A DNA stretch of 64,000 bases from an uncultured candidatus Brocadiaceae bacterium (GCA_964652775.1 CAZZAM010000001.1:128023-192022); one strand, 5' to 3'. Shown: positions 3,286 through 53,972, counted from the stretch's first letter. The notes: generated by a model not told the origin, from the sequence alone. Numbers and translations are program-made.

Positions 3286-4341
3286 TTAGAACCCCGCCCA
3301 GATGCGCGGATTCTGCGTGCGACACGTTTCCAGGACAGCAATCGTCTGTCGCACGCTTTCGGGAGTAATGTCCAGGGCGACGCCATCACGGACGGCAGCC
3401 ACGAGGTTGTCAAAGAAACCGGCAAATCCGCGCGCTTTGACCACTGGCACCAACTCGTCCTGCCAAGGTAACACATCGTCATTCTTGTAGCTGCGATTAA
3501 CGGCCGGACCATCTTGGATGGCAATGGCCGGCGCGGCCTTGGGGTCGAACCACTTCAGTTTGATCCCCTCCGGGGTCAGGATCAGCCCACCGCACGTGCC
3601 AGCAATCATCCATGGCGGCTGCGGCGGGAAGGCCATGCAGTTCGAAGACATCACATCGATCACTGCTCCGTTTGCACAACGCAACAGAATTTGGCAATGA
3701 TCGTCGGCATCGCCGGGCGTTACAGTCCGCTGGAGATCCGCGAATACATCGCGTACTGGACTGTCGATCAGGTGCAGGCATTCATCAACCAAGTGCGAGG
3801 CGTGCACATTGTGCAACCCACCGCCCTTGGCCTTGCGCATTACCCAATCATTGCGACGGGTAAACGAGGTGCGATTGCACGACACCTGCACGATTCGTCC
3901 TAAGCGACCGGACTTCAAGATCTGACGAATCGCCACCATGTCATCCGAGTAGCGGTACGGATGATAGCAGGTCAGCAGACGCTTCGCGTGCTGTGCTGTA
4001 GCGATCATGCGGTCTGCCTCGGCGGTGCCCTGACACATGGGCTTATCAACCGCGACGTGGAGTCCGCGTTCAAGACAGTCGATGGCTTCCTGGCCATGAC
4101 CACCGCTAGGCGTTGCCAAAACAATCAACTCACCGATTGGATCCTCGAGGAAGTCAGCAAAGGAGGCATACGTCCGACAACCGATCTCGGCCTCAGCTTC
4201 GGCGCGCCGAGCGGCAACTGGCTCAATGGCCGCAACCACGCGAAAACGTGGATGGCCTTTGAGCATTTGTTTCCAATGGATGTCCCAGCCTGCTCGACCA
4301 AGCCCGGCGATGACCGTGGCGACCGGCGCACTGGATGTCAT
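3286..4341 (-). CDS. Gfo/Idh/MocA family oxidoreductase
   Basis: 351-aa ORF. It has an N-terminal Rossmann segment 'VATVIAGLGRAGWDIHW', 'LATPSGGHGQEAIDCLERGLHVAVDKPM', and a C-terminal alpha/beta dimerisation region typical of the family. Confidence 0.8.
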   Translation of the reverse strand: MTSSAPVATVIAGLGRAGWDIHWKQMLKGHPRFRVVAAIEPVAARRAEAEAEIGCRTYASFADFLEDPIGELIVLATPSGGHGQEAIDCLERGLHVAVDKPMCQGTAEADRMIATAQHAKRLLTCYHPYRYSDDMVAIRQILKSGRLGRIVQVSCNRTSFTRRNDWVMRKAKGGGLHNVHASHLVDECLHLIDSPVRDVFADLQRTVTPGDADDHCQILLRCANGAVIDVMSSNCMAFPPQPPWMIAGTCGGLILTPEGIKLKWFDPKAAPAIAIQDGPAVNRSYKNDDVLPWQDELVPVVKARGFAGFFDNLVAAVRDGVALDITPESVRQTIAVLETCRTQNPRIWAGF

Positions 4342-5420
4342 CAGTATTTCCCATCGGTGGTCTGGAAGTGGGTCGGCTTACCCAAGGATTTACGACCAGC
4401 GGCAAGCCAGTCCGCTGTCCAGCGCACAACGGTGGCCGGGGTCACGGTTGGATAGCCGAACCGTTCCAGCAACCGTCCTCCATCGTTGAGGTACATGCGT
4501 GGCGCCAGCGTCCCAGAAAATTTCGCCTTTTTACCCAGGTATTGTCCCGCATTGATCGCTACGCGCTCGACGGTCAGCGTCTCGGGGCCAGTTAAGTTGA
4601 CGAACGCCGACGGCGAGGCGCACAGTTCCAAGCAGCGCAGAATCATGCGATTCGCATCGCCCTGCCAAATGCCATTGAAGCACGGCACCGAGATATCAAC
4701 TGGCGCATCATCAAGAATCTGCCGGACTACGTCATGGATCACACCGTAGCGTAGATCGAGCGAGTAGTTGAGTCGTACGATGCATACCTTGGTACCAGCA
4801 CTGCGACTCGCGTATTCGAACACGCGCTCACGGGCCAAAGCGGACATCGCGTATTCACCAATCGGAACCGGTGTCACGTTCTCATCGCAACCGCCGCTTG
4901 CGGGTTCGGCCAACGGATAGACGCAGCCAGTCGACATCGCCACGATGTTTGCGTCGGCATAGCGACGCGCGACGTATGCAGGAGCCACCGCATTCATCGC
5001 CCATGTTGCCGACGAATCACCACTGGTGCCAAATTTTTTCCCGGCGAGGAAAACGACCCGCTTGGAGTCGGGCAGCTTATCGACCGCAGTAGGATTCAGG
5101 AGATCGCACGGCACGGTGGTGACGCCAGCCTGCTCAAGCCGCTCGCGCGATCCCTTCTCGCTGAATCGTGAAACACCGATCACCTTTGCTTTTGAACCAG
5201 CCTGCTTGAGCGCCCGCACAGCCAACATGGCCATGCTGATGCCCATCTTTCCGGCAACACCCAGAAGAACGAGGTCGCCTTTCCCAGCGCCAAGACTGGC
5301 GACCAGATCCGGCTGCGGCCTGGCGAGAAAATCATCGAGCGCGTTTTCGTCAGCGAAACCTGTCGGCAATGTTGACTCAGATCCAGGCATGGTCATCTCC
5401 GGTAAGGTGAGCACATGCAA
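4341..5420 (-). CDS. NAD(P)-dependent epimerase/dehydratase-family (extended SDR) protein
   Basis: 359-aa ORF. Its stop overlaps the start of the downstream oxidoreductase at 4341. It has the glycine-rich 'LVLLGVAGKMGISMA' segment and 'MSTGCVYP', with an epimerase-like length. Confidence 0.65.
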   Translation of the reverse strand: MHVLTLPEMTMPGSESTLPTGFADENALDDFLARPQPDLVASLGAGKGDLVLLGVAGKMGISMAMLAVRALKQAGSKAKVIGVSRFSEKGSRERLEQAGVTTVPCDLLNPTAVDKLPDSKRVVFLAGKKFGTSGDSSATWAMNAVAPAYVARRYADANIVAMSTGCVYPLAEPASGGCDENVTPVPIGEYAMSALARERVFEYASRSAGTKVCIVRLNYSLDLRYGVIHDVVRQILDDAPVDISVPCFNGIWQGDANRMILRCLELCASPSAFVNLTGPETLTVERVAINAGQYLGKKAKFSGTLAPRMYLNDGGRLLERFGYPTVTPATVVRWTADWLAAGRKSLGKPTHFQTTDGKY

Positions 5421-5467: not shown

Positions 5468-5580
5468 GGTGAGCCGCCAAGGCGACAAGTACGCCAAGAA
5501 TGCAATATTTCACCTGCTCATCGCTCATCGAAAGACGCTTAGGCTGACCCTTGGCGCACTTAGCGCCTTGGCGGCTCACC
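5468..5580. other. Perfect 17-bp inverted repeat (GGTGAGCCGCCAAGGCG / CGCCTTGGCGGCTCACC) with a 79-nt spacer
   Basis: The arms at 5468-5484 and 5564-5580 are exact reverse complements. They lie in the intergenic gap between two minus-strand genes (stop at 5588, start at 5420). Confidence 0.7.
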
Positions 5581-12127: not shown

Positions 12128-15076
12128 ATGCCCATCCGCTTCCTACTCTGCTGTTTGTGCATCGGCCTGCTCGCTGGCAGCGAACCGGTCTACCTCGATC
12201 TCTCTGGTGTCGCTAACGTAGCACGCGAGGACGACGGTATTCCGAACAACGGTCAGGGTGGATGGACGGACGATGGCATCAACGACATGTTCACAAGTCC
12301 GTCGCTGCCACCAGGCACGCAGACAGTCAACGGAGTGCGTTTCCGCACGCTGAACCCCGTTGCCACCGGCGGCTCATCCGTGGTGATGCTCCGAGGCGCA
12401 ACCAGACCTACGCTGCCGCAGTCGGTGACGGTGTCAGCACATGGAGCAACGGGACGTTTTATTTACTTCGTTCACCATGGCGCGGCCCGTCCCAAGGGGA
12501 TAGCGCCAGCGGAGGTCGTCGCCACCTACACTGTCACCTATGCCGACGGTTCATCGGTGGCTATTCCGATCCGCGATGGTCGCGAGCTACGACACTGGTG
12601 GACAGGATCCTGGTGGGACAACAACGGCGCTGAAGCCTGGCCCGTGCTGATGGCGCAAAATGCTTACACCGCAAAGTGGCATCAATGGATTGGTCTATGG
12701 GCCACCTGTTGGACCAACCCCGAACCCGGCAAGGCGATCACCTCCATTACCCTCGCCTCGGCAGGCAGCGTGGCGCCGGCGATCTGGGCAATCACTATCG
12801 ACGATCAGAATTACCGCGAGACGGTCGGGGAAAAATACCAACTCGCAAAACCAGCAGAGGTACCGCCGGGCGCTTTCGACAGCCGCCTTGCCCTCGAACG
12901 CCACCTGATCAGACAAGAGATGCGCGCATCCGGCATGATCGTCGGCATGCGCTCGCTTGAACTGATTCGCCCCGATTTACTGGCCGTGACCATCGATGCA
13001 GCGGTGAGCGATGGCCCAGGCCTGGACGAAACGGCGGCAAAAACGCTACAGAATCCATCACGATTCAGTGTAGTCACCGCCGATACGTCACTGCAACCGC
13101 AGCATCCTGCTCAAGTGGGCCGCCAGTCCTATCTCTTCACCACCGCCGACATCGGACGCTTTCCGGTGAATCCGATTTTCTGGCATGTCTATTATCTGCG
13201 TTTGGCCGAGCCGCTGCGTTCGGGATCCCAGATTTCAGTGCGGGTCTCCGACCTCGCATCTGGACTCGTCTCTGCGCTGCCGCTCACGTTCCAACCTCAG
13301 ACCATGATTACGCCAACGTTAAAGGTCAACCAAGCCGCCTACTGCGCCGCTGCTAGTCGTCGTTACGCCTATCTTGGGTGGTGGGCCGGTGATCTCGGCG
13401 CGGTTGACTTCTCGAGTTTCAATCGCTTTGCCGTGATCGATGAAAAAAATGGAACTGAAGTGCTCGCTGGGGCCATCACCCCACGACCAGCCACCACCGA
13501 CAGCAAACTCACTCCTGCGGCGGATGGCAGCGATCCGCTCAGTGGCGAGCGCGTGTTCCAGATCGACCTGTCACCGCTGAAGCCCGGCCGTTACCACCTG
13601 CTGGTGCCGGGTCTGGGACGCTCGTGGAGTTTCGGCGTCGGCGGCGATGACGCCTGGCAACTCGCGCGAACCACGCTCCGTGGTCTGCTGACCCAGCGCT
13701 GCGGTTGCGATCTGCCCGCTTCCGCCACGTCCTATCCGCGACCTGCGTGCCACGTCAATGTCTATCAGCACGGACGTCTGGTTGGCGGCGTCAACGAACG
13801 CAGGACTGATGGCAAACTGGTCGTTGCTAATGCAGCGCTGTCCGCCGACGAACCAATCCGCTCGTTTCACGGTGGTTATCACGACGCTGGCGACTTCGAT
13901 TTGTTCTCCGGACACCTCGTCGCCACTGCTCGCATGTTGAATTCTTTTGAAGTACAGCCCAACGCGTGGCGCGATGGCGATCTGAATCTACCTGAAAGCG
14001 GCAATGGTATTCCCGATCTGCTCGACGAGGCAGCCTGGGGTCTCGCGTTCTATGCCGACAACCAAGCCGAAGATGGCAGTGTTCCAGCCGGTCGAGGGAA
14101 CGACGAGGACTACCAGAACAAAGAATGGATCAAGGACGGCGGCAAGGAACACGGCGCGATTCCCCGCTTCGGCGTGTTCCCGCCGACCCGCGCAGCGACC
14201 GCCACATTCGCCGCCGTGGCCGCGCAATTCGCGCGACTGGTCGCCCCCTTCGACGCGACCAAGGCCGCCATGTATCGCGAACGCGCCGAACGCGCCTGGA
14301 CCTGGGCGACGAAGGACGGCGGTGGGGATTACCGCAACAAGGGGCTCAGTTACGCACGCTACCTCTTGCCACGCTGTCTGGCCTGGGCCGCCACCGAACT
14401 GTGGGAAACGACCAGCAAGCCGGAATACCATGCATTCGTCATGACCAAACGCGCCGACCCGGAGACATGGGCAACCACTTGGCAGGACGTTGGCGAACTG
14501 GGCTACTTCCAGTGGCCGTTCGCGCGCGCAACGCAGGCAGGAACCGACGTCGGTTATCAACAGGAACTCCGCGCCGCTATCATCAAACAGGCGGATGGTC
14601 TCGTCGCATTGCTCGATCGGCCGTCATACCGCATGAGCTCGCGCACTGATGGTGCGGGCGGTTGGGGTAACCTGGTTGGCGGAGGCAATCGTGGTGGACT
14701 GTGCCTCTATGCATGGTTCCTGACTCGCGACGTGAAGTATCTTGATGCCGCATCGCTCAACGCCGACTACCAACTTGGATGCAATCCGCTCGGCCGCAGC
14801 TTCATCACCGGGGTCGGCAGTCGGCCACCTATCCATCCCGAGTTACGTCCGTGGCTCTATGACAAGAACGACCTGCCTGCACCAGGTGTTCCCGTCTATG
14901 GTCCAGGCGGTGGACCGAAATCGTTGCGCGGTTCCTATCCCGAGGCCGTCCCCACCTGGCGCTGCTGGCTCGACAATCCGGTTTCAGAGCTGCATAGCGA
15001 ATTCGACTTGGTGCGCATGGGTACCGAGGCGGGATTCCACGCGCTCCTGTGGATCGCCGGCAAGGACGTTCGCTAG
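12128..15076 (+). CDS. Glycoside hydrolase family 9 protein with N-terminal accessory and Ig-like (CelD_N-type) domains
   Basis: ORF 11822..15076. I place the start at the ATG at 12128, which gives the signal peptide MPIRFLLCCLCIGLLAGS. 'LKVNQAAYCAAASRRYAYLGWW' fits the Ig-like domain. 'FHGGYHDAGDFD' fits the GH9 DAGD catalytic motif. 'NPLGRSFITGVGSRPP' is present near the C-terminus. Confidence 0.85.
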   Translation: MPIRFLLCCLCIGLLAGSEPVYLDLSGVANVAREDDGIPNNGQGGWTDDGINDMFTSPSLPPGTQTVNGVRFRTLNPVATGGSSVVMLRGATRPTLPQSVTVSAHGATGRFIYFVHHGAARPKGIAPAEVVATYTVTYADGSSVAIPIRDGRELRHWWTGSWWDNNGAEAWPVLMAQNAYTAKWHQWIGLWATCWTNPEPGKAITSITLASAGSVAPAIWAITIDDQNYRETVGEKYQLAKPAEVPPGAFDSRLALERHLIRQEMRASGMIVGMRSLELIRPDLLAVTIDAAVSDGPGLDETAAKTLQNPSRFSVVTADTSLQPQHPAQVGRQSYLFTTADIGRFPVNPIFWHVYYLRLAEPLRSGSQISVRVSDLASGLVSALPLTFQPQTMITPTLKVNQAAYCAAASRRYAYLGWWAGDLGAVDFSSFNRFAVIDEKNGTEVLAGAITPRPATTDSKLTPAADGSDPLSGERVFQIDLSPLKPGRYHLLVPGLGRSWSFGVGGDDAWQLARTTLRGLLTQRCGCDLPASATSYPRPACHVNVYQHGRLVGGVNERRTDGKLVVANAALSADEPIRSFHGGYHDAGDFDLFSGHLVATARMLNSFEVQPNAWRDGDLNLPESGNGIPDLLDEAAWGLAFYADNQAEDGSVPAGRGNDEDYQNKEWIKDGGKEHGAIPRFGVFPPTRAATATFAAVAAQFARLVAPFDATKAAMYRERAERAWTWATKDGGGDYRNKGLSYARYLLPRCLAWAATELWETTSKPEYHAFVMTKRADPETWATTWQDVGELGYFQWPFARATQAGTDVGYQQELRAAIIKQADGLVALLDRPSYRMSSRTDGAGGWGNLVGGGNRGGLCLYAWFLTRDVKYLDAASLNADYQLGCNPLGRSFITGVGSRPPIHPELRPWLYDKNDLPAPGVPVYGPGGGPKSLRGSYPEAVPTWRCWLDNPVSELHSEFDLVRMGTEAGFHALLWIAGKDVR

Positions 15077-15226: not shown

Positions 15227-15384
15227 CCCGGCGATGGGATCACATGGAGAACCGGAGGAACGGAGCAGGCAGCGGCTTAGAGAATCAACGGCGTTCACCC
15301 AGGAGGTGAGTGCTTCTTTCGCCGCAAACCCAGTGCGACTCCGGTCCTCCGGTTCTCCATGTCGATCGAATGCTGCGTTTAGGG
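15227..15384 (+). repeat. ~158-nt hairpin repeat element, copy 1
   Basis: This copy aligns nearly base for base with 29909-30057 and 36140-36296. The 5' arm ACATGGAGAACCGGAGGAACGGAGC is complementary to the 3' arm GACTCCGGTCCTCCGGTTCTCCATGT. It sits in a convergent intergenic gap. Confidence 0.85.
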
Positions 15385-15409: not shown

Positions 15410-18400
15410 TCAGGCCTCGAAGGCAAGGTACATGCCGCTCCAAGGCTGAAGCTCCAAGGACAAACGGTGCCAGCCGTTCATCAATCGCTTGGTCGGAATG
15501 CGTCGGCCGGTTGCCAAATCGATTGCTGATCGTGCCGACATTGCCAAGCGCACGCGCACATCTGCTTTCATACGCGTTCGCAAGTGACTGAAGAGCAGGA
15601 AATATTCCTTACTGCCCTTACGAATCAATTCCTTCCAGGCAAAAAGATCATCGGTCTGATAGTCTTTGCCACGGATACCCAAATGCCGACAGAGACGCAT
15701 CAGGGTGTGGTTCGTCATGCGTTCATGACTCTCAAAGTCACGGAACTCGTCGATCGCATCGTCGGCATTGATATCGTAACCAGCGAGAAGCACGGCGCCT
15801 TTCCCAAGTGGTCGGCGAATCAGTACGGGCTTGCCACGGGTATCGGTAAGCAACGGCTCGCCGTCGCCAATGACCTCACTGGCGTTACCGCGCATGGTTC
15901 CCCCACCAAAGCTGGCAGGGAATTTGATCGTACGCTTGGTCCGATCTCCATAGCGCACATCTTCCAATCCGAGCACTTGCCTGAGGAACGTTCGCTGCAC
16001 GCGGCCCGCACCGAGGATCTCGCAGGTCTTGGGGAAGACGAGGAGGTTAAGTCCTTTCTCGATCGACTCACGCAACAGCCAATACCATGGCTCGTCCGAC
16101 GGTAGGGATTGAGATCCTTCGCGGCCGAAGAAATCATTGTCGGGCAGGGTCATCAGCTTGTAGCAGGAAAAATCGTAGCGGTGTTTGTCGCAGATCAGAT
16201 CAACCGGAAAATCCAGGCAGGTAGCGATGTTGGCCAGTGAGCGGCTCTTCCAGGCCATGCGATCGAACACCGCCAACTCAGGAGCCGCACGAACCGCGCC
16301 CATCAATTCCCGACGGATGAATCCCATGCGGGCAATATCTTCGCCATAGACTCCGAGATCGGGTCCGGGGATCGTGTTGTAGGACGCGTTAAGGCGAACC
16401 GATTGAAACAAGGCGTCGTCATACTGCCGGTACATCGCACCCACCTGCCATGCCTCACCACCCCAGCGAACTGAGTGCAGCGGGGCGCTATGCGCATACA
16501 CAGCCGTGGGATCGAATTTGCGTTCTTCGATCCAATGTTTTGCCTTGGCCTCAAGAAAGTACGTGGACACATCGGCAATGGAGCCTGCGCCATGGCCCGG
16601 CGGATCCGATGGCAACTTCGACGGCGCAAATTGACGGACGATGTTGTTGACGTGTCTGACACCAACATCAATTGACCACATGCGGAACTGCACATACACG
16701 CCAAAGGCGTCTTTCTCTTCGGAGTAAGGCACCGGCACATCGTTGAAACTCTGGAAATCCCGCGCAAATAGCCTGCCGACCGTAGCAAGTGACCAGCCCA
16801 ACTCGTCGCGGAGGTAGGCTGCAAAGGCCGTACGCTCGTGCGGAGAATAATCGAAAATCTTGTTGTCGCCCCCGTAATAGTAGTAGCCGTAGGGGAAGTC
16901 GGAGTTGCCGAAGTCATAAATAAAATTGAGCACGCGTGGATGCTCAGCATAGCGCTTGGTCATCGCTTCCAACATGCCGAAGTAGTGCGTGCGATAGAAC
17001 GGACTCCAAATACTTGGGAAGAAACCCGGCTTGCCGTGCCGGTCAATGGCTGGTTCCTTCAAGCTCCACCACGGCACGCCGCCATCGCCCAGGCCCGAAC
17101 CACGCGTGGTCGGGAACATCCATAACTGCAGTTGCAACTTTTCCTCTTCGGCCATCGCTAAAATCTCGTCGGGAATACGCCAGTCGTAAGTTCCAGGCTG
17201 GGGCTCGACATCTTCCCATGGAATGTTGACGCGGGCGTACTGGCAACCACGTGCGCGCATCTCGCGGCAAAAAAACCTGAACTCCTCCGTGATTTTCGGC
17301 TCCTGGAAAGACCAGTAGGTAGAAAACCCATAGCCGATATCGCTGGAGGCTGGCGCGGACAACGTACGCAAGGTGGTGGTCGCCAAGGTCCGAGTTTTGT
17401 TGCCATCACCGACCACGACATCGAGGCGCGAGACACCGAAGCGACGTGGTATGCGCAGCATCGATAGTCGGCGGCTTGCGCCTGCATTGACCGCAAATGA
17501 CCGCCAAACGCCGATCTCGCGGCCATCAGCAAGCACACGCACATCCATTGCCGTTCGCTCATGACCAAGATTGCGAATGGTCACCACCGGTAATTCAGCG
17601 TCGCCTTCAACAACCAACGGCCGCGCCTCAATTCCGGCCGCCAATTCCACCGGCTGGAGCCAAGCAAGCAAACTGAGAACCATGGGCCCAATGCCCTTCC
17701 ACTCTCGAGTAAGCAATCCGGGGTCACGGGTCCACGGCAGTTGGTAAGCACCATCAACATTCTCGCGCGGTTCGCCGCCGATGAATCCGATCACCGCCAA
17801 GCGCGCGCCAAGGAACTTCTTGCAACGTCGTTCCACCACCGTGACCGCAGAAGAACTGTCGGCGTGGCTATTACTTTCGATGCGGAGCAAGGGATGGGCT
17901 TCGTCGGGGGGAAATGCGGTGATGCGTAGCGCGGGAAAGTTTTTCCCGGTAAAGAAAGCGTGATCCTCAAGACGTCCAAGAATCTTCCGTCCGGTTTCGG
18001 TTAGGCCATCACCCGTGATGCGGCAGTCGTCATAGCAACGGGTCAGATGAAACCGCGAGGCGTGCATATTCCGCAGCGGAAACCATTTTCCATGATGTGG
18101 GAGATCACCCAGGAAAAATAACGAACCGCCAGCTGCATGAAAGGCGATCAAGCCCGCGAGCGCCTCCTCAGTAAAATCACCGCGGATATAGGGTATAACG
18201 AGGATGTCCGTATTGGAACGAGTGATCGTCCGCAGTTCCGCATGCCCGAGCAGGCGGAATGGCATGCGCCGGGATGCCAGCAGGGTGGCGATATCCTCGG
18301 CTCCGTACTCCGGCATCGCCTGGAATGCAGCGTCTTTGAAGACAGCTATTTTACCTACTGACCTCATGGGGGGAATCCTGTGTTGTTTTATGTCCGCACC

Positions 18401-29087: not shown

Positions 29088-29867
29088 ATGGCTCTCGCTC
29101 ATCTCCACTACTGGAGTCCCGCTCTGCAAAAGCAGTGCGGCATGTTTGTCGCCATGCCTGATGCAGCGAGCAAGCCGCGACCGGTCGTGTATCTCCTGCA
29201 CGGTTTATCCGACGACCACACAATGTGGCAGCGTCGCTCGTCGATCGAGCGATACGCTGAGCGCTGCGGACTGATCGTCGTGATGCCCGATGGCGCACGT
29301 TCCTTCTACACCAACGCTGCTGATGGCTCTGGTAACTACGAACAACACATTCTGGATTCCATCGCCTATGTCGAACGTACCTTGCACTGCCGCAGTGATC
29401 GTGCAGCACGCGGCATCGGCGGTCTGTCCATGGGTGGCTACGGCGCGCTGAAAATCGCCCTCAAACATCCAGAACTCTTTTCTTCGGTGGCGATCCACTC
29501 CGCCCCCCTGGACATCGACAAGTGTCGCATCAGCAAGGACCGCAAGTCGCTATTCAACCGCGTTTTCGGCCCGGCCATCACACCGACCGAGGACTGCTTT
29601 GCTCTCGTCCGCAAGCTCAAGCGCATGAAGACGCGCTTCCCGCGTCTGCGCATCGATTGCGGCACCGAGGATGGTCTCATCGGACACAATGATCGGATGC
29701 ATGCGCTACTCAAACAACTTGGTGTCGAACACCATTACGGAACCCCGCCGGGTGGGCATGATTGGGAATACTGGGATCTCCATGTGCAATCAGCACTGGA
29801 GTTTCACCGCGACACGTTCGCGGGAATTTCCCGACGCGTCAGCCACCGCCGTCGCGCAAAAGCCTAG
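29088..29867 (+). CDS. Esterase (esterase D / CE1-like alpha/beta hydrolase)
   Basis: 'PVVYLLHGLSDDHTMW', 'GLSMGGYGALKIAL' (GxSxG) and 'GGHDWEYW'. Length is 259 aa. Confidence 0.85.
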   Translation: MALAHLHYWSPALQKQCGMFVAMPDAASKPRPVVYLLHGLSDDHTMWQRRSSIERYAERCGLIVVMPDGARSFYTNAADGSGNYEQHILDSIAYVERTLHCRSDRAARGIGGLSMGGYGALKIALKHPELFSSVAIHSAPLDIDKCRISKDRKSLFNRVFGPAITPTEDCFALVRKLKRMKTRFPRLRIDCGTEDGLIGHNDRMHALLKQLGVEHHYGTPPGGHDWEYWDLHVQSALEFHRDTFAGISRRVSHRRRAKA

Positions 29868-29908: not shown

Positions 29909-30057
29909 TCCGGCGATGGGATAACATGGAGGACCGGAGGAACGGAGCAGACATGGGCTTAGAGAAACAACGGTGTTCGCCCAGCAGGCAAGTGCTCCTT
30001 TCGCCACAAATCCTGTGCGGCTCCGGTTCTCCATGTCGATCGAATGCTGCGTATAGG
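29909..30057 (+). repeat. Hairpin repeat element, copy 2 (one 8-nt arm unit shorter)
   Basis: It aligns with 15227-15384 and 36140-36296. The 3' arm is GGCTCCGG------TTCTCCATGT. It sits in a convergent intergenic gap. Confidence 0.85.
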
Positions 30058-30058
30058 T

Positions 30059-31156
30059 TTAACGATCACTGGTCGCTGACGGCACTGATCCAACCGCCAC
30101 ATCTGCAAATGTCGCAACCGCAGGATCGGTTACGTCTTCGTTGCTCACTACCACACCTGCGAGCAACGGCCCAGTGAAACTGGGAACCGTCATCGACTTT
30201 CCGACGCTGATCCAGGTCCGTCCATCATGGGACATTCCAGCGCTGATTTCCCTTTCACGGCGAACGAGGCGCAACCAGAGCGGATATGCTTCGTTCGCAA
30301 GCACCACTGATTCAATACGGCGGCCAGGGGTGTAACGACAACCCACTCTGACCCCATGATCCTTGTCTTGACCAAAAAATACCTTCGCGCTGTCTGTCTC
30401 CGTGGACAACCGGAGCATGATTCCAGCAAAGCCCTTTCCCTTGGCGCTCAGCGACATCAGCCGGGTGCTGACCATGCCGTCACCGATAAGCGTTGTTGCC
30501 GCCACCCGACAGATATCGCGATCATTCCAAATCACCTTTCCAACTCCACGCAGCGTCCAAATTCCAGCTGCTATATCTGGTCCTGAACCCATGTTGGGAA
30601 GACCAATATCGTAGCATGTCCAACCGGACAATCCCGTTATTGGTGCTGTAGTCGTCTTAGCGCGTGACGGCGGCGGCTGGATCGGACGAGTCGCCACCGG
30701 TACTGTAGGTACTGAAACCGGAGCTCGCTCGGTAGCGGATGGGCTTTGCAGCGGAGGCGCCTGAGTGACCGGGGTAACCGGGACTATCGTCGCAGCCGCG
30801 CTGGATGTCTCTGGTCGTCGCAACAACGACCACATGGTCACGAGAGACAGAGTGACAACGGCCACGACTGCCAAGAGCACCAATTGACGGGATCCGCCCG
30901 TCGATTGACGCACCTGCTGGCGGTCTTTCTGCATGCGATCCGAGGACGTTTCACGCTCCCATGAAGCCAACATCGAGGACACGGTTCCCAGCGGATGTCC
31001 AAAGATATCCCGTATCTGATCTTCCGACTGCGCTTCACCCTTGCGAAAAAGTTCGCGGACCCCAGCACGATCGAACGGACCACGGTCACCACGCAGGGTC
31101 AGAACGAAAAACGACTTGGCCGCTGGATCAGACATGGATGTCTGGGTAATATCCAA
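30059..31156 (-). CDS. Hypothetical single-pass membrane protein (GYF_2-like N-domain, Pro-rich linker, ConA/LamG-like C-domain; tentative)
   Basis: 365-aa ORF. It contains 'FFVLTLRGDRGPFDRAGVRELFRKGE', the TM segment LVLLAVVAVVTLSLVTMWSLL, a P/T/A-rich linker, and a C-terminal beta-rich segment of about 170 aa. Confidence 0.5.
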   Translation of the reverse strand: MDITQTSMSDPAAKSFFVLTLRGDRGPFDRAGVRELFRKGEAQSEDQIRDIFGHPLGTVSSMLASWERETSSDRMQKDRQQVRQSTGGSRQLVLLAVVAVVTLSLVTMWSLLRRPETSSAAATIVPVTPVTQAPPLQSPSATERAPVSVPTVPVATRPIQPPPSRAKTTTAPITGLSGWTCYDIGLPNMGSGPDIAAGIWTLRGVGKVIWNDRDICRVAATTLIGDGMVSTRLMSLSAKGKGFAGIMLRLSTETDSAKVFFGQDKDHGVRVGCRYTPGRRIESVVLANEAYPLWLRLVRREREISAGMSHDGRTWISVGKSMTVPSFTGPLLAGVVVSNEDVTDPAVATFADVAVGSVPSATSDR

Positions 31157-34200: not shown

Positions 34201-35099
34201 GCGTTGGCGTTGTTGTACACCAGGCCGCGGAATCCATCGTAACTGTTCTGTGATTGCCAACTGGCGTTATCGCTGCCATTTTGGAACCAACCGGTGTTCA
34301 AACTGTTGCGCCACGGAGCGTACTGCATCGGCACCGCCAAAGTCCGCGCATCCATGCTGTCAACGATCGTCGGCCGCGTCGGATCACTCCAGGGAGTTGG
34401 GCTGCCCGCTCCTACGGCAATGAGGTTCCACCGCGTACTCGCCGGCGGGACCGTGGCGGTTGGACCGTTGGCAGCGTTACAGAGATAGTATGCCCCCGAG
34501 TAGAAAACATACTGGCCAGCGCTGTAACTAAGACTCGCCGACCACACCCTTGATGGGCCATACTGGTTGGCTGGCCATTGGCTGCTGGTCGTGCCCAGCG
34601 CATTGATGTCGGTGGTGCCGTCGGTCGCGCCAACCCGGCCTTCAAAGAAAAACTTCCAATTGAGACCCGTCCGCGCGGCAGGCACGACGGGGATCGGCCC
34701 ACCGTAATTATACATGACCTGACGCTCGGTTTGATTGGGAATATACACGTCCGGATAGCGCTGGGGTAGCTGCGCGGTGAACGCCGCTTGGTAGTCACTC
34801 ATCAGGATCTGCTGCGCGTACATCGCTCCAGCAATGGCTGTTTGCGCCGCAATTTGTCCAGCCGTTTGACGGGTTCCGCTCTCGCGCTGACTAGCCATCA
34901 AACCGACGAAGGTACCAGCCAACATCACGATCGTCCCCAGAATGAGCAGGACCATGAGTGCTACTGACCCGCGACGCGCAGTGTCGCCTGGGGGTGTGCA
35001 TGGCTGACGGAAACGCACGAACTGCAACGACACAGTCCGGACTTCTACATTCGCGATGGACAGACGCTGCTTGCTCTGAACTTGATAGCACATGATCAC
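31287..35099 (-). CDS. Giant GspK/PilX-like minor pseudopilin (1270 aa)
   Basis: The N-terminus 'ARRGSVALMVLLILGTIVMLAGTFVGL' is GspK-type, with no Glu at +5. The start (GTG 35099 or ATG 35093) abuts or overlaps the stop of the upstream pseudopilin gene. Confidence 0.7.
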   Translation of the reverse strand: MIMCYQVQSKQRLSIANVEVRTVSLQFVRFRQPCTPPGDTARRGSVALMVLLILGTIVMLAGTFVGLMASQRESGTRQTAGQIAAQTAIAGAMYAQQILMSDYQAAFTAQLPQRYPDVYIPNQTERQVMYNYGGPIPVVPAARTGLNWKFFFEGRVGATDGTTDINALGTTSSQWPANQYGPSRVWSASLSYSAGQYVFYSGAYYLCNAANGPTATVPPASTRWNLIAVGAGSPTPWSDPTRPTIVDSMDARTLAVPMQYAPWRNSLNTGWFQNGSDNASWQSQNSYDGFRGLVYNNANAATWPKWFTMAYYDQNFIPLPVTSRASAAYEARISVMALPLDGNMSINFRPDILSKTTGGRFRYGLRNQIVPSGAGEVFASPSAGETAAIASGTVAFLSDAAYFGSGKTAALSYAVGSNATISLSQANAEQTFMVDPVDTDWVGASFPLAQQYATALGNMFGAMGVTDGSSTGRVKKNSSLVYTGPVGQEGNTAFYAWSGATPTYVKTTVVINGVSMSLNKGSAVPGVLTRMMNIAVGQGWLGNFYNYDMASDPGSPWSAPASPMKFQPGPNASWAQYHTKLGFESSSVSTDLTQSLSTQTRAVDLCCFSTTPFGVDLDRTKSPKRNQGDGSLADIDCPWYVNMLLMPREMGVAMVAGMTGDWYSQIDNYITRSRSGSAHLNYSMNQRNLLPIPPRKACPTMGDAFAAVWDDGMAKTGADGIEGGALPPLGAGNTVVLTTTYKRPPANGTEVGTYYFRNDAFAGDAPLVWKNPVRDELVAVDEVRRDITAITRANPCAVTAASHGLVTGDQVNISDVLGMTMVNGGPYTVTVVSTSVFTLNGVDSTAYVAYVTSPPGHAVKVVATPAEVFGYARFPYLQNANGGGIASCQRAMNSSVTAPATTQYTTPLAPFVGQGSGEDMFHVFVFGQFYQNSNSQTHYFRNRPDNGGDSLLSNNNDTVDERLSYQNDITAALWKTLVDCLSDRKYGKLVSGLSTGYDKIEDVETVFLAHLGISIAYTNAASHASTTAMSASDYSVYLGAPSNDHSAPYPLGRMNQLNALSGITTEIGTTRSAGCTSSGGMALNQDGNPGQYGYRNYAVKGVRDPGTKLYTSLGWPTIENPAASGIYVDYKPTWAALSRQLEHRLNDVRMSLFGTPALDLNGDGIVDATTVSGAGIVTVGDPQLHFSVTGRWNIGQCNKWRLFIRSELWDRRNDKLATEASLERVIAVDPAGDGSMTGAHSIFSRWHGNPIVDPRMGPTTQGRTEAFTSP

Positions 35100-36109
35100 G
35101 GCGCCTTGGTGGTAAAGGTAAATGCCTGACGCAGACCGGTGGCCCGGTCCACCAGGGTCAAGGCAATCTGCAACTGCCGGGGACGCAGCAGATTCGACGC
35201 GGTGTCCGTCGTGGTATAACCCTCACCATCGATGCTCGTATTGTATCCGCCCCCAGCATCGGCCACGGTCACTCCCGCACGGGTGAGCATGCTGATCGAA
35301 CAGTCTTCGACGTTATCGACGAGAACCCGCGTTTGATCTGGAATGGGAACCGCATCCCAAATGCTGGTCAATGCGGTGTTAGACAACGATAAGTTGAGTT
35401 GATCTGCTGCGATCATCGAGTTAGGAACCTGGTTGCTGATGGGATTGGTGGTCCGCTCAGCGGTCATGCCCAAATAATTACGGGTTGTTCCATCGGCATC
35501 GACGCCGGTCAGAAACAGCATATCGTAGATCTTCACTTGTCTCGCCACGGCGGGGGTGGCGGACAGTGGATCGTAGAAGCTCATTATGCCATTGAGGAAT
35601 TCGCTATAGGTACGGACCGCACTGGGGCGCGCTCCGATAACCGGCCGGAACATCATACCAATGTCATTGATGGTGAACATGCGCAGATTCGGATACCAGA
35701 CATAGCCATACGCCGGGGGTGACGCCGCCCGGGTCAGGCTCCGCGAAGCGGCCTTCCACTCCCAGCGCACCCAACCGAAATCCACGTCCTTAGGAAAATT
35801 GTAAGAGGCCTGTTCCCAAAATTCGCGCGCTGAACGCATACCAGTGAACTGGACTATCGACTTAACGCCACCGCTGTAGGTGGTGGTCCCATTGCAGGCG
35901 ACATGCTGCAAGAGACAGGCCATGTCGCGTTCCCATTGCTCGGCGATGTCCCCGGCTTGGCGATGCAAACGAACGGTGGCTTCAGCGCGTTGGATCAGGC
36001 GCTTGCTGTGTTGATACGCCGCCATGGCCAATCCCATGACGGCCATACCCAAGGCCATGGCCACCATCATTTCGATCAGCGTGAAACCACGACGTGACAT
36101 CACCGTCAT
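35096..36109 (-). CDS. GspJ-like pseudopilin (about 337 aa)
   Basis: ORF 35096..36310, but residues 1-67 are a read-through of the repeat element. The start is probably Met68 or Met71 (36109/36100), giving MTVMSRRG|FTLIEMMVAMALGMAVMGLAMAAY, a prepilin cleavage/methylation motif. Confidence 0.75.
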   Translation of the reverse strand: MTVMSRRGFTLIEMMVAMALGMAVMGLAMAAYQHSKRLIQRAEATVRLHRQAGDIAEQWERDMACLLQHVACNGTTTYSGGVKSIVQFTGMRSAREFWEQASYNFPKDVDFGWVRWEWKAASRSLTRAASPPAYGYVWYPNLRMFTINDIGMMFRPVIGARPSAVRTYSEFLNGIMSFYDPLSATPAVARQVKIYDMLFLTGVDADGTTRNYLGMTAERTTNPISNQVPNSMIAADQLNLSLSNTALTSIWDAVPIPDQTRVLVDNVEDCSISMLTRAGVTVADAGGGYNTSIDGEGYTTTDTASNLLRPRQLQIALTLVDRATGLRQAFTFTTKAP

Positions 36110-36139
36110 GGATGCGGACGTTGCGACACGCCTGCTAGA

Positions 36140-36296
36140 TCCGGCGATGAGATCACATGGAGGAACGGAGGAACGGAGCAGGCATGGGCTTGGAGAATCA
36201 ACGGCATTCACCCAACATGTGATTGCTTTCTTCGCCGCGCATACCGTGCGACTCCGGTCCTCCGGTTCTCCATGTCGATCAGATGCTGCGTTTGGG
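36140..36296 (+). repeat. Hairpin repeat element, copy 3 (inside the pseudopilin operon)
   Basis: It aligns with the copies at 15227 and 29909. It occupies the 197-nt gap between the I-like and J-like pseudopilin genes, in the orientation opposite to transcription. Confidence 0.85.
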
Positions 36297-36306
36297 ATCA
36301 TGGAAC

Positions 36307-36753
36307 TCATCGGCTCACCACGCTGACGAGGCCAGCCAGTTTCTGCCCGCTTTCACCCCAGAACACATTCACTTGGACCAGATCGACACTGTGGCTCATC
36401 GCCTGGAGGATAGTCCGCTCGACATAGTAACCGTTGAGGAAACCGGTAACCGGCGAATCCGCCATGGTCTTCGCTGCATCAACGAGCGCGGGGTCAACCA
36501 GGGCCGTACGCGCGGTTGATTCGGCGGTGGCCATGCCAACGGCAATGTGCGACTCGCGCGTTCCGATGGTCGTCAGGGCCAGGACCGACAGCAAACCCAT
36601 GGACAGCAAGAGGAGCGCGATGATGACATCGATCAGGGTGAAGGCCCGACGAATAGGCGAACCACGACGAGCAATAGTCCGGACTTCCGGACTTCCGGAC
36701 TTCCGAACGACTTCGCCTCGGTTCACAGCACGATGCGTGTGATTGGTGCTCAT
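36307..36753 (-). CDS. GspI-like pseudopilin (148 aa)
   Basis: 'RRA|FTLIDVIIALLLLSMGLLSVLAL' prepilin-type N-terminus. The ATG at 36753 overlaps the upstream stop (ATGA). The size is typical of GspI. Confidence 0.75.
   Translation of the reverse strand: MSTNHTHRAVNRGEVVRKSGSPEVRTIARRGSPIRRAFTLIDVIIALLLLSMGLLSVLALTTIGTRESHIAVGMATAESTARTALVDPALVDAAKTMADSPVTGFLNGYYVERTILQAMSHSVDLVQVNVFWGESGQKLAGLVSVVSR
36678..36707. repeat. Tandem octamer array TCCGGAct x3 plus a degenerate unit
   Basis: TCCGGA occurs at 36678, 36686 and 36694, and TCCGAA at 36702. The array lies inside the 5' coding leader of the I-like pseudopilin. Confidence 0.9.
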
Positions 36754-38330
36754 GGCTTGGGCTTGATCCAGGGGTACGGGTCGTGTTGCTGCAGCATTTC
36801 GGGCTCAAGGGCACCAGTAACGCGGATCTTGTTCGCATCCCCATCAGTAACGGCGCAATACACCCAGCCATTGCCCCAGATCCGATCGGCGGTGGGAACA
36901 TTGACCTCGATGGCGTCAAGCCAGGCCTGAATACTCGCAAATGGTCGAATGCTGCGGACTGCCCCGGTTGGTTCGCTGACCACGATCCGGCGCATCGGCA
37001 GTAGCGACTTCAATGCGATGCTTGGGCTGGTAAAACTCGTGAGGTCGTCTGGTGCATCCTTGGCGACGGTGACCGATGGACCGCCAATCGCATCGCCCGC
37101 GAAGTAGATGATGCCATCGTCACGGCCGTGAAAGACATAGTTACTCGTCACAGCACCGTATTGCGGCTGGGCAATTTTCTTGGGCGCTGCGAGACCCGTG
37201 GCATCCATCCACGCCCAGGCCGAGTACAACGCCGCACGATTATAAAACGTCAGGGCCCGAGCCTGACCGTCACCAAGGAAGACGATGGCGAAATCCATCC
37301 AGTACCCATTGAGGACCGGACGCGGCGTACCGATTTGCGTCGCGTCACAACAGGGCCGCATCTCCTCTTGCGCACTGTTCCGCGCCGGAGTTTGCGCCGC
37401 GTTGCTGGGGGTGTACCAGCAGTCGCACAAGGCCGCATTGGTGCTGTTGGTCACCGGGATCGCTGTTTGCGCGTCATTCCATCTAAAAACACCTGGGCGA
37501 CCAGGGTTACCAGTTTGGAAAGCGTCGTGATTGGCGCCGCGATAGGTGCATTCGTAATCCAACCCCGAACCATAGATGGTGGTGTCGTAGCCAGCAAAGG
37601 CGCGCATCGTGTAGGCTGAACCCGAACCGGTGAGGTAGCCAAACCAGGGGCGGGGATAGGTGGTGCTGAGCGCCGCGATGCCGGTGCGGGTTGGCGTATC
37701 CTGGGACCACGCCGTAGCAGCAATGCCATACTGGGCGCGATCAACCGGAATCTGCGCCACCGCCGGGGTGTGGAGATTGTCCTCGACATCGCCCAGCGCC
37801 AAGAACCGCGTCCCCCTTGGCAAATAGAATGGTTCGCCGATTTGCGCGCGTTGGACGGTTGCAGCAAAGCGCTGAGCTGATCCGCGTGAACCCATCTTGG
37901 TGGACTCGGGAGCGCCGCTCATGCGTGGCAACAGGTCGTAGCCTTTCTCTGGTCCGATGATGGCGCACCAGTGCCGGCCAGGAAAGACTTTTGGATCCGA
38001 CTCATCCCAGTTGCGGAGGATGGCTCCCGAACCTTTGTTCTCGAGGTGAAACACCACGCAGTGGGGCTTGCCCGACGTGATGGCCAGATTGCGCGCCTTG
38101 AGCAGCATGCGTTCCACCCCATTCGCGGCCTGCTCAACCTGGATCTCAGCCTGGCCTTTGCTCAGCATCCCGCTCGACATCGTGATCCCTGCGAGGATTG
38201 AGATAATCCCGATGACGACCAGCAGTTCGATCAGCGTAAACGCACGGGTAATACGGCTCATCCTGAACGCAGCAGTCCGGAAGTCCGGAAGTCCGGAAGT
38301 CCGGACTGCGTCAATGAGGTTAATGATCAT
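36750..38330 (-). CDS. GspH/FimT-like pseudopilin (526 aa)
   Basis: 'ITRA|FTLIELLVVIGIISILAGI' is followed by 'AANGVERMLLKARNLAITSGKPHCVVF' (GspH-like). The start is either the ATG at 38330 (3 nt after the upstream stop) or the internal ATG at 38261. Confidence 0.75.
   Translation of the reverse strand: MIINLIDAVRTSGLPDFRTAAFRMSRITRAFTLIELLVVIGIISILAGITMSSGMLSKGQAEIQVEQAANGVERMLLKARNLAITSGKPHCVVFHLENKGSGAILRNWDESDPKVFPGRHWCAIIGPEKGYDLLPRMSGAPESTKMGSRGSAQRFAATVQRAQIGEPFYLPRGTRFLALGDVEDNLHTPAVAQIPVDRAQYGIAATAWSQDTPTRTGIAALSTTYPRPWFGYLTGSGSAYTMRAFAGYDTTIYGSGLDYECTYRGANHDAFQTGNPGRPGVFRWNDAQTAIPVTNSTNAALCDCWYTPSNAAQTPARNSAQEEMRPCCDATQIGTPRPVLNGYWMDFAIVFLGDGQARALTFYNRAALYSAWAWMDATGLAAPKKIAQPQYGAVTSNYVFHGRDDGIIYFAGDAIGGPSVTVAKDAPDDLTSFTSPSIALKSLLPMRRIVVSEPTGAVRSIRPFASIQAWLDAIEVNVPTADRIWGNGWVYCAVTDGDANKIRVTGALEPEMLQQHDPYPWIKPKP
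38276..38305. repeat. Tandem octamer array TCCGGAag x4
   Basis: TCCGGA occurs at 38276, 38284, 38292 and 38300. On the coding strand it is followed by CTGCTGCGTTCAGGATG, where the ATG is the internal start at 38261. Confidence 0.9.
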
Positions 38331-40211: not shown

Positions 40212-40297
40212 TAACAGAGGCCAGACAGATTGACCGCCCTGCGTATGACACGCGCTCGAGACCTATCTGAGCATTGAACCTTTAAGGAGCGCTTGAT

Positions 40298-40434
40298 TCA
40301 CACGGAGGAACGGAGGCAACGGAGCAGACCGGGTTTGCCGGTCTGATGTCCATCACCCGTGGATGAATAGGTCACAATGTGTAACCCAATCGCTCGAACT
40401 TCGTTACCTCCGTTCCTCCGTGTGAACTGCTCCG
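40298..40434 (+). repeat. Variant hairpin repeat element (AACGGAGG-type arms)
   Basis: TCACACGGAGGAACGGAGGCAACG (40299-40322) pairs with CGTTACCTCCGTTCCTCCGTGTGA (40402-40425) at 23 of 24 positions. There is an inner hairpin CAGACCGG-gtttg-CCGGTCTG at 40325-40345. The element lies in the divergent region upstream of the pseudopilin operon. Confidence 0.75.
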
Positions 40435-40553
40435 TCTAGGTTGAACCCCAGTCTGCCTGAGACCCGTGGCTCATTCGCCAGTCCAGCCCGCCCAACCTGG
40501 GTGTTCTCTACCTGCGGTCTCCCTGCATTCTCTGCTGCCGAGAGGATTCCTGC

Positions 40554-53495: not shown

Positions 53496-53669
53496 CAGGG
53501 CCAACGGCCCGAACCCATCCCAGCCCAGGGCAACGCCCTGGGGAATGAGATGCGTAGATATGAGCCCTGTAGGGGCGATCTATTGGGTCGCCCCTACAGG
53601 GCTCACCGAATATTTGAACCATACCCAGGGCGTTGCCCTGGGCTGGGATAGGTCGGGCCGTTGGCCCTG
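53496..53669. repeat. Compound palindromic element (~174 nt, three nested hairpins)
   Basis: The outer arms CAGGGCCAACGGCCCGA...CCCAGGGCAACGCCCTGGG and CCCAGGGCGTTGCCCTGGG...TCGGGCCGTTGGCCCTG are complementary. The central hairpin is GAGCCCTGTAGGGGCGA-tctattggg-TCGCCCCTACAGGGCTC. Confidence 0.8.
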
Positions 53670-53809
53670 CAGGAGAAACGCAGACACGAGTCCGAATTAT
53701 TCTCGCCTGCTTTCTCGTCATGACATCTGGCCGCATGCCGATCAACCTCCTGGGGCGGCTAGGTCATCGGGAATTTGCGTGTGGTCAATGCCATGGTTGG
53801 GGTAGAGGG

Positions 53810-53928
53810 GAATGTAGAATGCTCGAATGTAGAATGCTCGAATGTGTGGGAAACTTCCGTGCCCGGCGTTTTTTAAGGGGTATCCACTCGAGCATTCGAG
53901 CATTCGAGCATTCGAGCATTCTACATTC
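53810..53928. repeat. Long inverted repeat whose arms are tandem GAATGCTC/GAGCATTC octamers
   Basis: The left arm is GAATGTAGAATGCTCGAATGTAGAATGCTCGAATG. The right arm is (GAGCATTC)x4-TACATTC. GAATGTAGAATGCTCGAATG (53810-53829) is exactly complementary to 53909-53928. Confidence 0.85.
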
Positions 53929-53972
53929 AAACTGCCTGGAGCCGCCGCGCATCTGTGCTATGAGGACGCACC

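Follow-up and report, generated by a model that had tools for sequence, protein, structure and literature searches.

A 64,000-nt stretch of DNA (the window) from an uncultured candidatus Brocadiaceae bacterium of a Hainich groundwater metagenome carries a family of hairpin repeats whose arms are built of octamers. What kind of element these repeats are, and how they came to be dispersed, is the question addressed here. An earlier note on this DNA had proposed either REP/MITE-like elements or a structured RNA, and had named no described family to which they might belong.

Copies, arms and predicted folds of the hairpin repeats

The sequences of copies 1-3, read at the positions listed in Table 1, aligned almost base for base, as had been reported. 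A profile built from these copies recovered them at E = 1e-58 to 1e-62, and its sole further match in the window was the suspected variant near 40298 (about 40295-40446, E = 5.5e-6), referred to here as variant copy 4. The core 15-mer GGAGGAACGGAGCAG was found four times, against 0.15 occurrences expected. The four copies are 150-180 bp each, dispersed and all intergenic, and no ORF was found in any of them, in agreement with the earlier note. An ORF called at 35096-36310, across copy 3, was rejected as over-extended; a start at about 36109 fits the pilin-like N-terminal methylation motif, and copy 3 is therefore intergenic as well. The surroundings of the copies cover every arrangement (two convergent, one minus-strand pair and one divergent), and the flanking genes (GH9, GH42-like, esterase and pilin-like) are unrelated. 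All four copies are in the + orientation, but four of four on one strand has a probability of 1/8, which is not significant, and an orientation bias was dropped.

Table 1. Hairpin repeats and other periodic arrays in the window
Feature	Position	Strand	Arms or units	Context
Copy 1	15227..15384	+	15242-15265 (ACATGGAGAACCGGAGGAACGGAG) / 15339-15362 (CTCCGGTCCTCCGGTTCTCCATGT)	flanked by a GH9 gene (end at 15076) and a GH42-like gene (end at 15410) that converge
Copy 2	29909..30057	+	5' arm 29924-29947; 3' arm 30021-30036, one 8-nt unit shorter	flanked by an esterase gene (end at 29867) and an unknown ORF (end at 30059) that converge
Copy 3	36140..36296	+	36155-36178 / 36252-36275	two minus-strand genes: stop of 36307-36753 and true start (~36109) of a pilin-like gene
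Variant copy 4	~40270..40446	+	40297-40324 (TTCACACGGAGGAACGGAGGCAACGGAG) / 40399-40426	between divergent gene starts
Gene-less hairpin, 31-nt arms	5468..5580		unit CGCCAAGG; GGTGAGCCGCCAAGGCGACAAGTACGCCAAG / CTTGGCGCACTTAGCGCCTTGGCGGCTCACC	between two minus-strand ORFs
Self-complementary array, 46-nt hairpin	38266..38311		TCCGGAAG x4	ends 8 nt upstream of a minus-strand pilin-like ATG
Hairpin	53803..53932		GAATGTA/GAATGCTC units (5' arm); CGAGCATT x4 (3' arm)	divergent intergenic region
Array, period 8	36672-36713		TCCGGACT x3	inside predicted N-terminal extension of a minus-strand pilin-like gene

The mutually complementary arms of about 24 nt described earlier were recovered: those of copy 1 are 24 nt long and 96% complementary, and those of variant copy 4 are 28 nt long and 93% complementary. 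The window stems thus measure 24-28 bp, with 73-74 nt between the arms. The 8-nt period of the arms is real, with lag 8 alone enriched among lags 4-15 (4 arrays in the window vs 0 expected), and copy 2 has indeed lost exactly one 8-nt unit, the loss being confined to its 3' arm. In the window copies the 5' arm switches among unit variants while the 3' arm is constant, and the arm changes are therefore uncompensated. The predicted minimum free energies of the copies range from -57 to -80 kcal/mol, with z-scores of -2.1 to -8.1 on both strands. On folding, the second stem proposed for the interior was formed in copy 1 and was partial in copies 2 and 3. Its reported change from A-T to G-C on both sides in copy 2, next to a broken pair, is present in the sequences of copies 1 and 2, and is without statistical weight in a set of three sequences.

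The ends of the window family read CCGGCGATGGGATCACATGGAGG...CTCCATGTCGATC. The outer 15-20 nt of copies 1-3 pair weakly, and variant copy 4 has an extended outer repeat, in which an inverted symmetry (TTSAACCT..AG) reaches about 25 nt past the arms stated earlier, out to about 40270 and 40446. No recognisable gene remnant was found in the loops of copies 1-4, and no sigma-70-like promoter or U-tract terminator was found at any of the four copies. An intrinsic terminator was dropped for want of a U-tract. A CsrA sponge was dropped because the GGA motifs are paired inside the stem, and an integron attC site because the copies lie outside cassette arrays.

The structured-RNA half of the earlier reading was not supported, because only the arms pair, covariation is absent and the neighbouring genes are unrelated. 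An Rfam search gave no match at the copies, either at the gathering threshold or at E <= 10. In an alignment of nine related copies from three planctomycete genomes, 21 pairs were essentially invariant, with a covariation term of +0.57. No shared interior structure was seen in this alignment, and the interior is not conserved across subfamilies.

Three more hairpins with periodic arms, built of other units, were found in the window (Table 1). The period-8 arrays at 38266-38311 and 36672-36713 each lie at the 5' end of a pilin-like (N_methyl) gene on the minus strand; an influence on translation is conceivable, as is variation in the number of units. A separate region, 53496-53669, is dense in perfect palindromes, with arms of 30 nt (53513/53624), 18 nt (53561/53588) and 17 nt (53496/53653). 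Within this cluster, a full-length match to the Acido-Lenti-1 RNA (RF01687) was found at 53624-53668 (+), with a score of 35.8 bits (E = 1.9e-4), just below the gathering score of 37.

Relatives in other genomes and the genes between inverted arrays

A genome scan with the pattern GGAGRAMCGGAGG-N70-100-CTCCGKTYCTCC returned 84 stretches, most of which are true arm-bearing hairpins and a few of which look like chance coding matches. The hosts belong to Planctomycetota, Acidobacteriota (Vicinamibacterales), Gemmatimonadota, Verrucomicrobiota, Bacteroidota (Fibrella, Spirosoma and Dyadobacter), Proteobacteria and Armatimonadota, and include a Thermoplasmatota-labelled MAG; hairpins with (N)CGGAGGA arms occur in many phyla. 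Across subfamilies the arms are common and the loops different. The number of units differs among copies and even between both arms of one copy, as in a locus with six extra units on one arm only (L021). A plasmid BLAST search with copy 1 and a pattern scan of viral contigs gave no match, and a metagenome scan with the most conserved 21-mer of the window family gave a single partial copy. In that metagenome contig (L086 4826-5050, minus strand), the window family is present as a 3' arm only, beside a different octamer hairpin with AACCATCA units (GTTATTGGTTGATGGTTCATGGTG ... GTTAACCATCAACCATCAACCATAAACC). In Fibrella arboris, one 8-kb block (L036) holds an octamer-arm hairpin and an IS200-like Y1 transposase gene (4200-4860; PF01797, E = 8e-21) between 58-nt inverted repeats, in a RAYT-with-REPs-like arrangement.

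The closest view of how such hairpins relate to genes was given by the MAG DATDQL, in which common ends of about 30 nt, followed by ACGGAGGA arrays, bracket either short loops or a gene. The ends gttccgttg..cccgccaggatCACACGGAGGAACGGAGG bracket short loops at three places in one block (L044 2520-2640, 6830-6970 and 7430-7570) and also in L004 and L043, and the same ends bracket a 156-aa ORF at L044 3770-4410. This ORF belongs to the GxxExxY family of PD-(D/E)XK nucleases (PF13366, E = 5e-31; TIGR04256, E = 4e-30). Gene-bearing and gene-less forms with common ends coexist in this one genome. The window and DATDQL families have ends in common over about 20-35 nt: the left end of the window family, ccggcgatgGGATCACATGGAGGAACGGAG, resembles the DATDQL ends cccgccaGGATCACACGGAGGAACGGAGG, and from gatCACATGG onward the window ends have the same 20 nt as one DATDQL end. 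The density of elements in DATDQL is very high, with four arm-bearing elements in a single 8-kb block (L044) and adjacent elements in L004. DATDQL is labelled archaeal, which would mean that the class extends to archaea, unless the bin is contaminated.

Two more GxxExxY genes in inverted arrays were found in L006, one with ACGGAGGA units and the other with GCGCAGAG units. Thirteen GxxExxY genes were then considered that had been chosen regardless of arms (7 plasmid-borne and 6 from the protein database). Six of the 13 had flanking inverted-repeat scores of 33-69, above all of the background (maximum 31, mean 16.2, n = 1,720 placements), and seven were without a clear arm pair. Some sampled genes outside the six had a 5' arm only, or a gene-less hairpin of like units adjoining (L089, L090, L097, L104 and L105b). 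The units vary by cassette, examples being CACAGAGA, CGCAGAGG and CGCAAAGG. The arms bracketing a Planctomycetota GxxExxY gene (L096) match the CGCCAAGG unit type of the window hairpin at 5468-5580, and the two arms are identical over an 11-nt run, GCGCCTTGGCG. In a Fusobacteria plasmid (L094 500-1020), the repeat on either side of the GxxExxY gene is direct instead of inverted (22 nt, CAGATTTAATCCGTGTACCTAT); its source could be either a target that was duplicated or an arm that was rearranged. Arms acting as a Shine-Dalgarno donor for the cargo gene were dropped because the spacing from arm to start codon is inconsistent.

A second type of gene was found in the same position. In L053, an S23p gene (PF05635) lies inside GGAGAAAN / TTCTCCGN arrays, of which the GGAGAAAN type is like the hairpin arms. 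Each of the eight plasmid-borne genes examined for the S23p four-helix bundle (L108-L115) has flanking tandem arrays with units of 6-8 nt; in five of the eight the arrays are inverted and score 40-56, higher than any of the 1,720 background placements. Two of these S23p genes, with flanking heptamer arrays, lie between cas6 and cas4, in plasmids of Anabaena sp. 90 (L110) and Pseudanabaena (L113). When all ORFs of 70-260 aa in the related loci (about 1 Mb) were scored blind, about a dozen distinct genes proved to be flanked by inverted repeats: eight GxxExxY genes, one S23p gene and one RAYT-like transposase, the remainder being one spurious ORF between two hairpins and one unknown ORF without a Pfam match. 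Both GxxExxY and S23p genes are thus statistically associated with flanking inverted arrays. Neither gene was found within the window.

The class can be described by its architecture. Tandem units of 6-9 nt make up two inverted arrays, of which the purine-rich one always lies 5' of the pyrimidine-rich one, and the loop between them either is short, without coding sequence, or contains one small GxxExxY (PF13366) or S23p (PF05635) gene. The 5' arm was purine-rich in 20 of the 20 arms tallied, including all six window hairpins tallied. Since the arms stay complementary while the units differ, what is conserved across the class appears to be the stem and not the unit sequence. Cassettes with an ORF have host genes on both sides on the same strand. 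Sites of GxxExxY genes (X) include fabD-X-fabG, radA-X, X-dnaJ-grpE, rsfS-X-rlmH, yicC-X-gmk-rpoZ, gltB-X-gltD and gcvPB-X; the SPOUT methyltransferase gene at the rsfS site is presumably rlmH. At L104 7600-10390, a GIY-YIG gene separates gcvPA from gcvPB, which is itself directly followed by a GxxExxY gene; two different small nuclease genes have therefore been inserted in one conserved operon.

The residues D..ExK are invariant in the GxxExxY proteins, and a structure model with a pLDDT of 95 shows a PD-(D/E)XK fold. In a fold search this model matched Cas4, lambda exonuclease and a splicing endonuclease, all weakly (TM 0.45-0.5), and a sequence search of the PDB gave marginal Cas4 matches only. 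According to the model, GxxExxY is a minimal PD-(D/E)XK nuclease, to which the fold search assigns no specific function; the invariant residues and the confident model suggest that the predicted nuclease is active. In a 2012 survey, PF13366 was listed as of 'unknown' function with 'multiple transfers' (PMC3424549). The family is very large: one search gave at least 7,995 significant matches, from 8,000 candidates scored.

Origin of the window copies

We infer that the window copies belong to this class of cassettes as its gene-less forms. Three near-identical copies dispersed in unrelated intergenic contexts support this, and we consider it probable that all four are gene-less, non-autonomous members of a cross-phylum foldback cassette class, either miniatures or vacant sites. 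An empty-site allele was sought at copy 2 and none was found: the closest homologue of the neighbouring esterase is only 64% identical, and two other assemblies of the site also contain copy 2.

Some steps by which such cassettes might persist and spread can be suggested. In a read-through transcript, the 24-28 bp stem would be an RNase III substrate, by analogy with the 23S rRNA IVS, and the cut would remove the insert from the host transcript, which could limit harm to the operon. With the G-rich arm first, the C-rich arm would never be single-stranded, and Rho loading might be avoided, although this is speculative. The copies presumably spread at the DNA level. One candidate process is homing, in which the nuclease would stimulate copying between sites that have matching arms; another is a DDE transposase acting in trans, as the 3-bp duplications of a sister family would suggest.

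That sister family is also an argument for a different explanation, namely that the repeats are classical MITEs, whose octamer arrays are (sub)terminal repeats with reiterated sites for a DDE transposase (IS5/ISL2-like or IS630-like) supplied in trans and whose association with small ORFs is incidental. We regard this as unlikely. The sister family, in the Planctomycetota MAG MGR_bin356 (loci L017, L021, L037 and L051), has arms and some loop homology with copies 1-3, together with perfect 16-bp termini, GAAGCTGTCTTGAAAG, and 3-bp TNA duplications (TTA, TCA and TAA). Such termini and duplications are the signature of IS5-family or Harbinger-type transposition, and they point to a DDE transposase rather than a nuclease. 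The window copies are without these 16-bp termini; their outermost ends are poorly complementary, and pairing is confined to the sub-terminal arms. TA(G) is found on both sides of each window copy, perfect in copy 2 and with one mismatch in the other three; it could be a target duplication or could come from a palindromic CTAG inside the ends. Small size (below 300 bp), multiple copies and intergenic position fit a MITE, and the REP/MITE-like half of the earlier reading was right in kind, the repeats being multi-copy, non-coding, intergenic foldbacks. However, neither the window nor the related loci (about 1 Mb) yielded a transposase with matching termini, and in this same DNA the only genes found between such arms were GxxExxY and S23p. 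No duplications were seen in the Vicinamibacterales and DATDQL families, whose ends are fuzzy. Furthermore, the unit sequences diverge widely between cassettes while the architecture is kept, which would be unexpected for the binding site of a single transposase family.

It seems decidedly improbable that the repeats are host-maintained REP-like arrays, in which the hairpin would serve to stabilise or terminate transcripts, with small selfish ORFs homing secondarily into the loops. Two copies do lie between convergent gene ends, and the stems are very stable on both strands. Paired convergent heptamer arrays in Xanthomonas are abundant and positionally conserved and have no known function (PMC4692102), and slippage can vary the number of units, as in copy 2 and in the locus with six extra units on one arm (L021). 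However, no U-tract or other terminator-like feature was found at any copy, and one copy lies between divergent starts and another within a co-directional gene pair. One arm sequence spans phyla, and horizontal spread is therefore favoured over a local origin.

A structured non-coding RNA of conserved fold, acting as an sRNA or a cis-regulatory element, is very improbable indeed, for against the strong predicted folds, the outer-stem G-U pairs on the + strand only and the single inner-stem change on both sides in copy 2 stand an Rfam search that was empty even at E <= 10, zero covariation over 21 pairs in nine sequences, an interior structure that is not conserved, the absence of a promoter-like site at the copies, unrelated neighbours in every arrangement, and genes around copy 3 that oppose the strand with the G-U pairs.

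Relation to known systems

The earlier note could name no described family for the repeats, and none was found in Rfam, in the literature searched for the arm sequences or in a 2024 review of prokaryotic MITEs (PMC10969869), where nothing of this kind is mentioned. The architecture is likewise undescribed in the literature searched for the arm sequences, GxxExxY, PF13366, the IVS protein with inverted repeats, STRR and Chunjie.

If GxxExxY and S23p genes are the cargo of hairpin cassettes, with gene-less hairpins like those in the window as relics or landing pads, several loose ends would be linked: intergenic tandem 7-9-mers, inverted SSR pairs, the IVS, and small genes within conserved clusters, such as those interposed in fabD-fabG, gltB-gltD, yicC-gmk and cas6-cas4. 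It is quite possible, and we propose it tentatively, that the 23S rRNA IVS, the cyanobacterial STRR pairs, the Xanthomonas GGGAATC pairs and the window hairpins form one undescribed selfish class, in which a GxxExxY or S23p gene sits in co-evolving inverted arrays of 6-9-nt units, inserts co-directionally into conserved operons, insulates itself through RNase III and spreads by nuclease-stimulated copying into gene-less landing pads. A cargo role of this kind would bear on the origin of the IVS and on the roles of the very large families PF13366 and PF05635. In practice, the hairpins can inflate ORF calls, as with the wrongly extended ORF over copy 3, and those inside operon transcripts are, by analogy, likely RNase III sites.

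Among known systems, the 23S rRNA IVS come closest to the window copies, being selfish inserts of 100-450 nt with a terminal inverted-repeat stem of more than 20 bp that is an RNase III substrate. An S23p ORF occupies the loop of some IVS, and many others have no ORF and form hairpins near the size of the window copies. In Coxiella, the IVS is a selfish element of 428 nt. Its loop contains an S23p ORF, RNase III cuts its terminal stem of 28 bp, and strains differ in how many tandem heptamers (GACAGAT) it has (PMC4990558). IVS also occur in Leptospira, Salmonella and others; no origin has been established for them since they were discovered, nor a function for S23p (PF05635) (PMC4990558). With stems of 24-28 bp and 73-74 nt between the arms, the window copies fall in the range of IVS (stem of at least 20 bp, loop of 50-400 nt). 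They differ in lying outside rRNA, between protein-coding genes, with no insertion in helix 25/45; an Rfam search of the window detected neither rRNA nor another Rfam family. In addition, their arms are built of 8-nt units over the whole length, and the GxxExxY nuclease that serves as cargo in this class has not been reported for IVS. The S23p loop ORF of the IVS is absent from the window copies and present in their class relatives (L053 and L108-L115).

The Xanthomonas GGGAATC and cyanobacterial STRR/GGGGAYT arrays are similar in that two convergent 7-nt arrays of variable number lie in intergenic regions and are capable of forming a stem-loop (PMC4692102). They differ from the window repeats, in which the unit is 8 nt long and does not form G4, and in which the arrays bracket a conserved loop and make up a dispersed repeat family. 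The Xanthomonas study drew no link to ORFs, and S23 and 'four helix' are mentioned 0 times in it (PMC4692102).

In the REP/REPIN-RAYT system, too, gene-less palindromes are abundant, and copies that enclose a small nuclease-type gene are less common. REPs are defined as imperfect palindromes of 20-40 nt with a GTAG or CGTC tag (PMC3733652), whereas the arms considered here are tandem arrays of 24-60 nt, and those in the window start with ACATGGAG or CACACGGAG and have no such tag. RAYT has an HUH/Y1 fold, whereas the protein of this class is predicted to have a PD-(D/E)XK fold.

Chunjie, a prokaryotic MITE, inserts into an operon without disturbing it, according to a title cited in PMC10969869, and to that extent it is like the elements described here. 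The window elements share with Correia, Nezha and Chunjie the form of a short, non-coding, multi-copy, intergenic foldback. They differ from such MITEs in that no parent IS or transposase was found for the window family in the window and the related loci, the arms are tandem arrays of variable unit number, and the gene in matching arms encodes a predicted PD-(D/E)XK nuclease or S23p and no transposase. Long inverted arms made of short tandem sub-repeats in variable copy number are also a feature of the eukaryotic Foldback (FB) elements; these are kilobase-scale and have other associated proteins, and their likeness to the window hairpins is one of analogy only.
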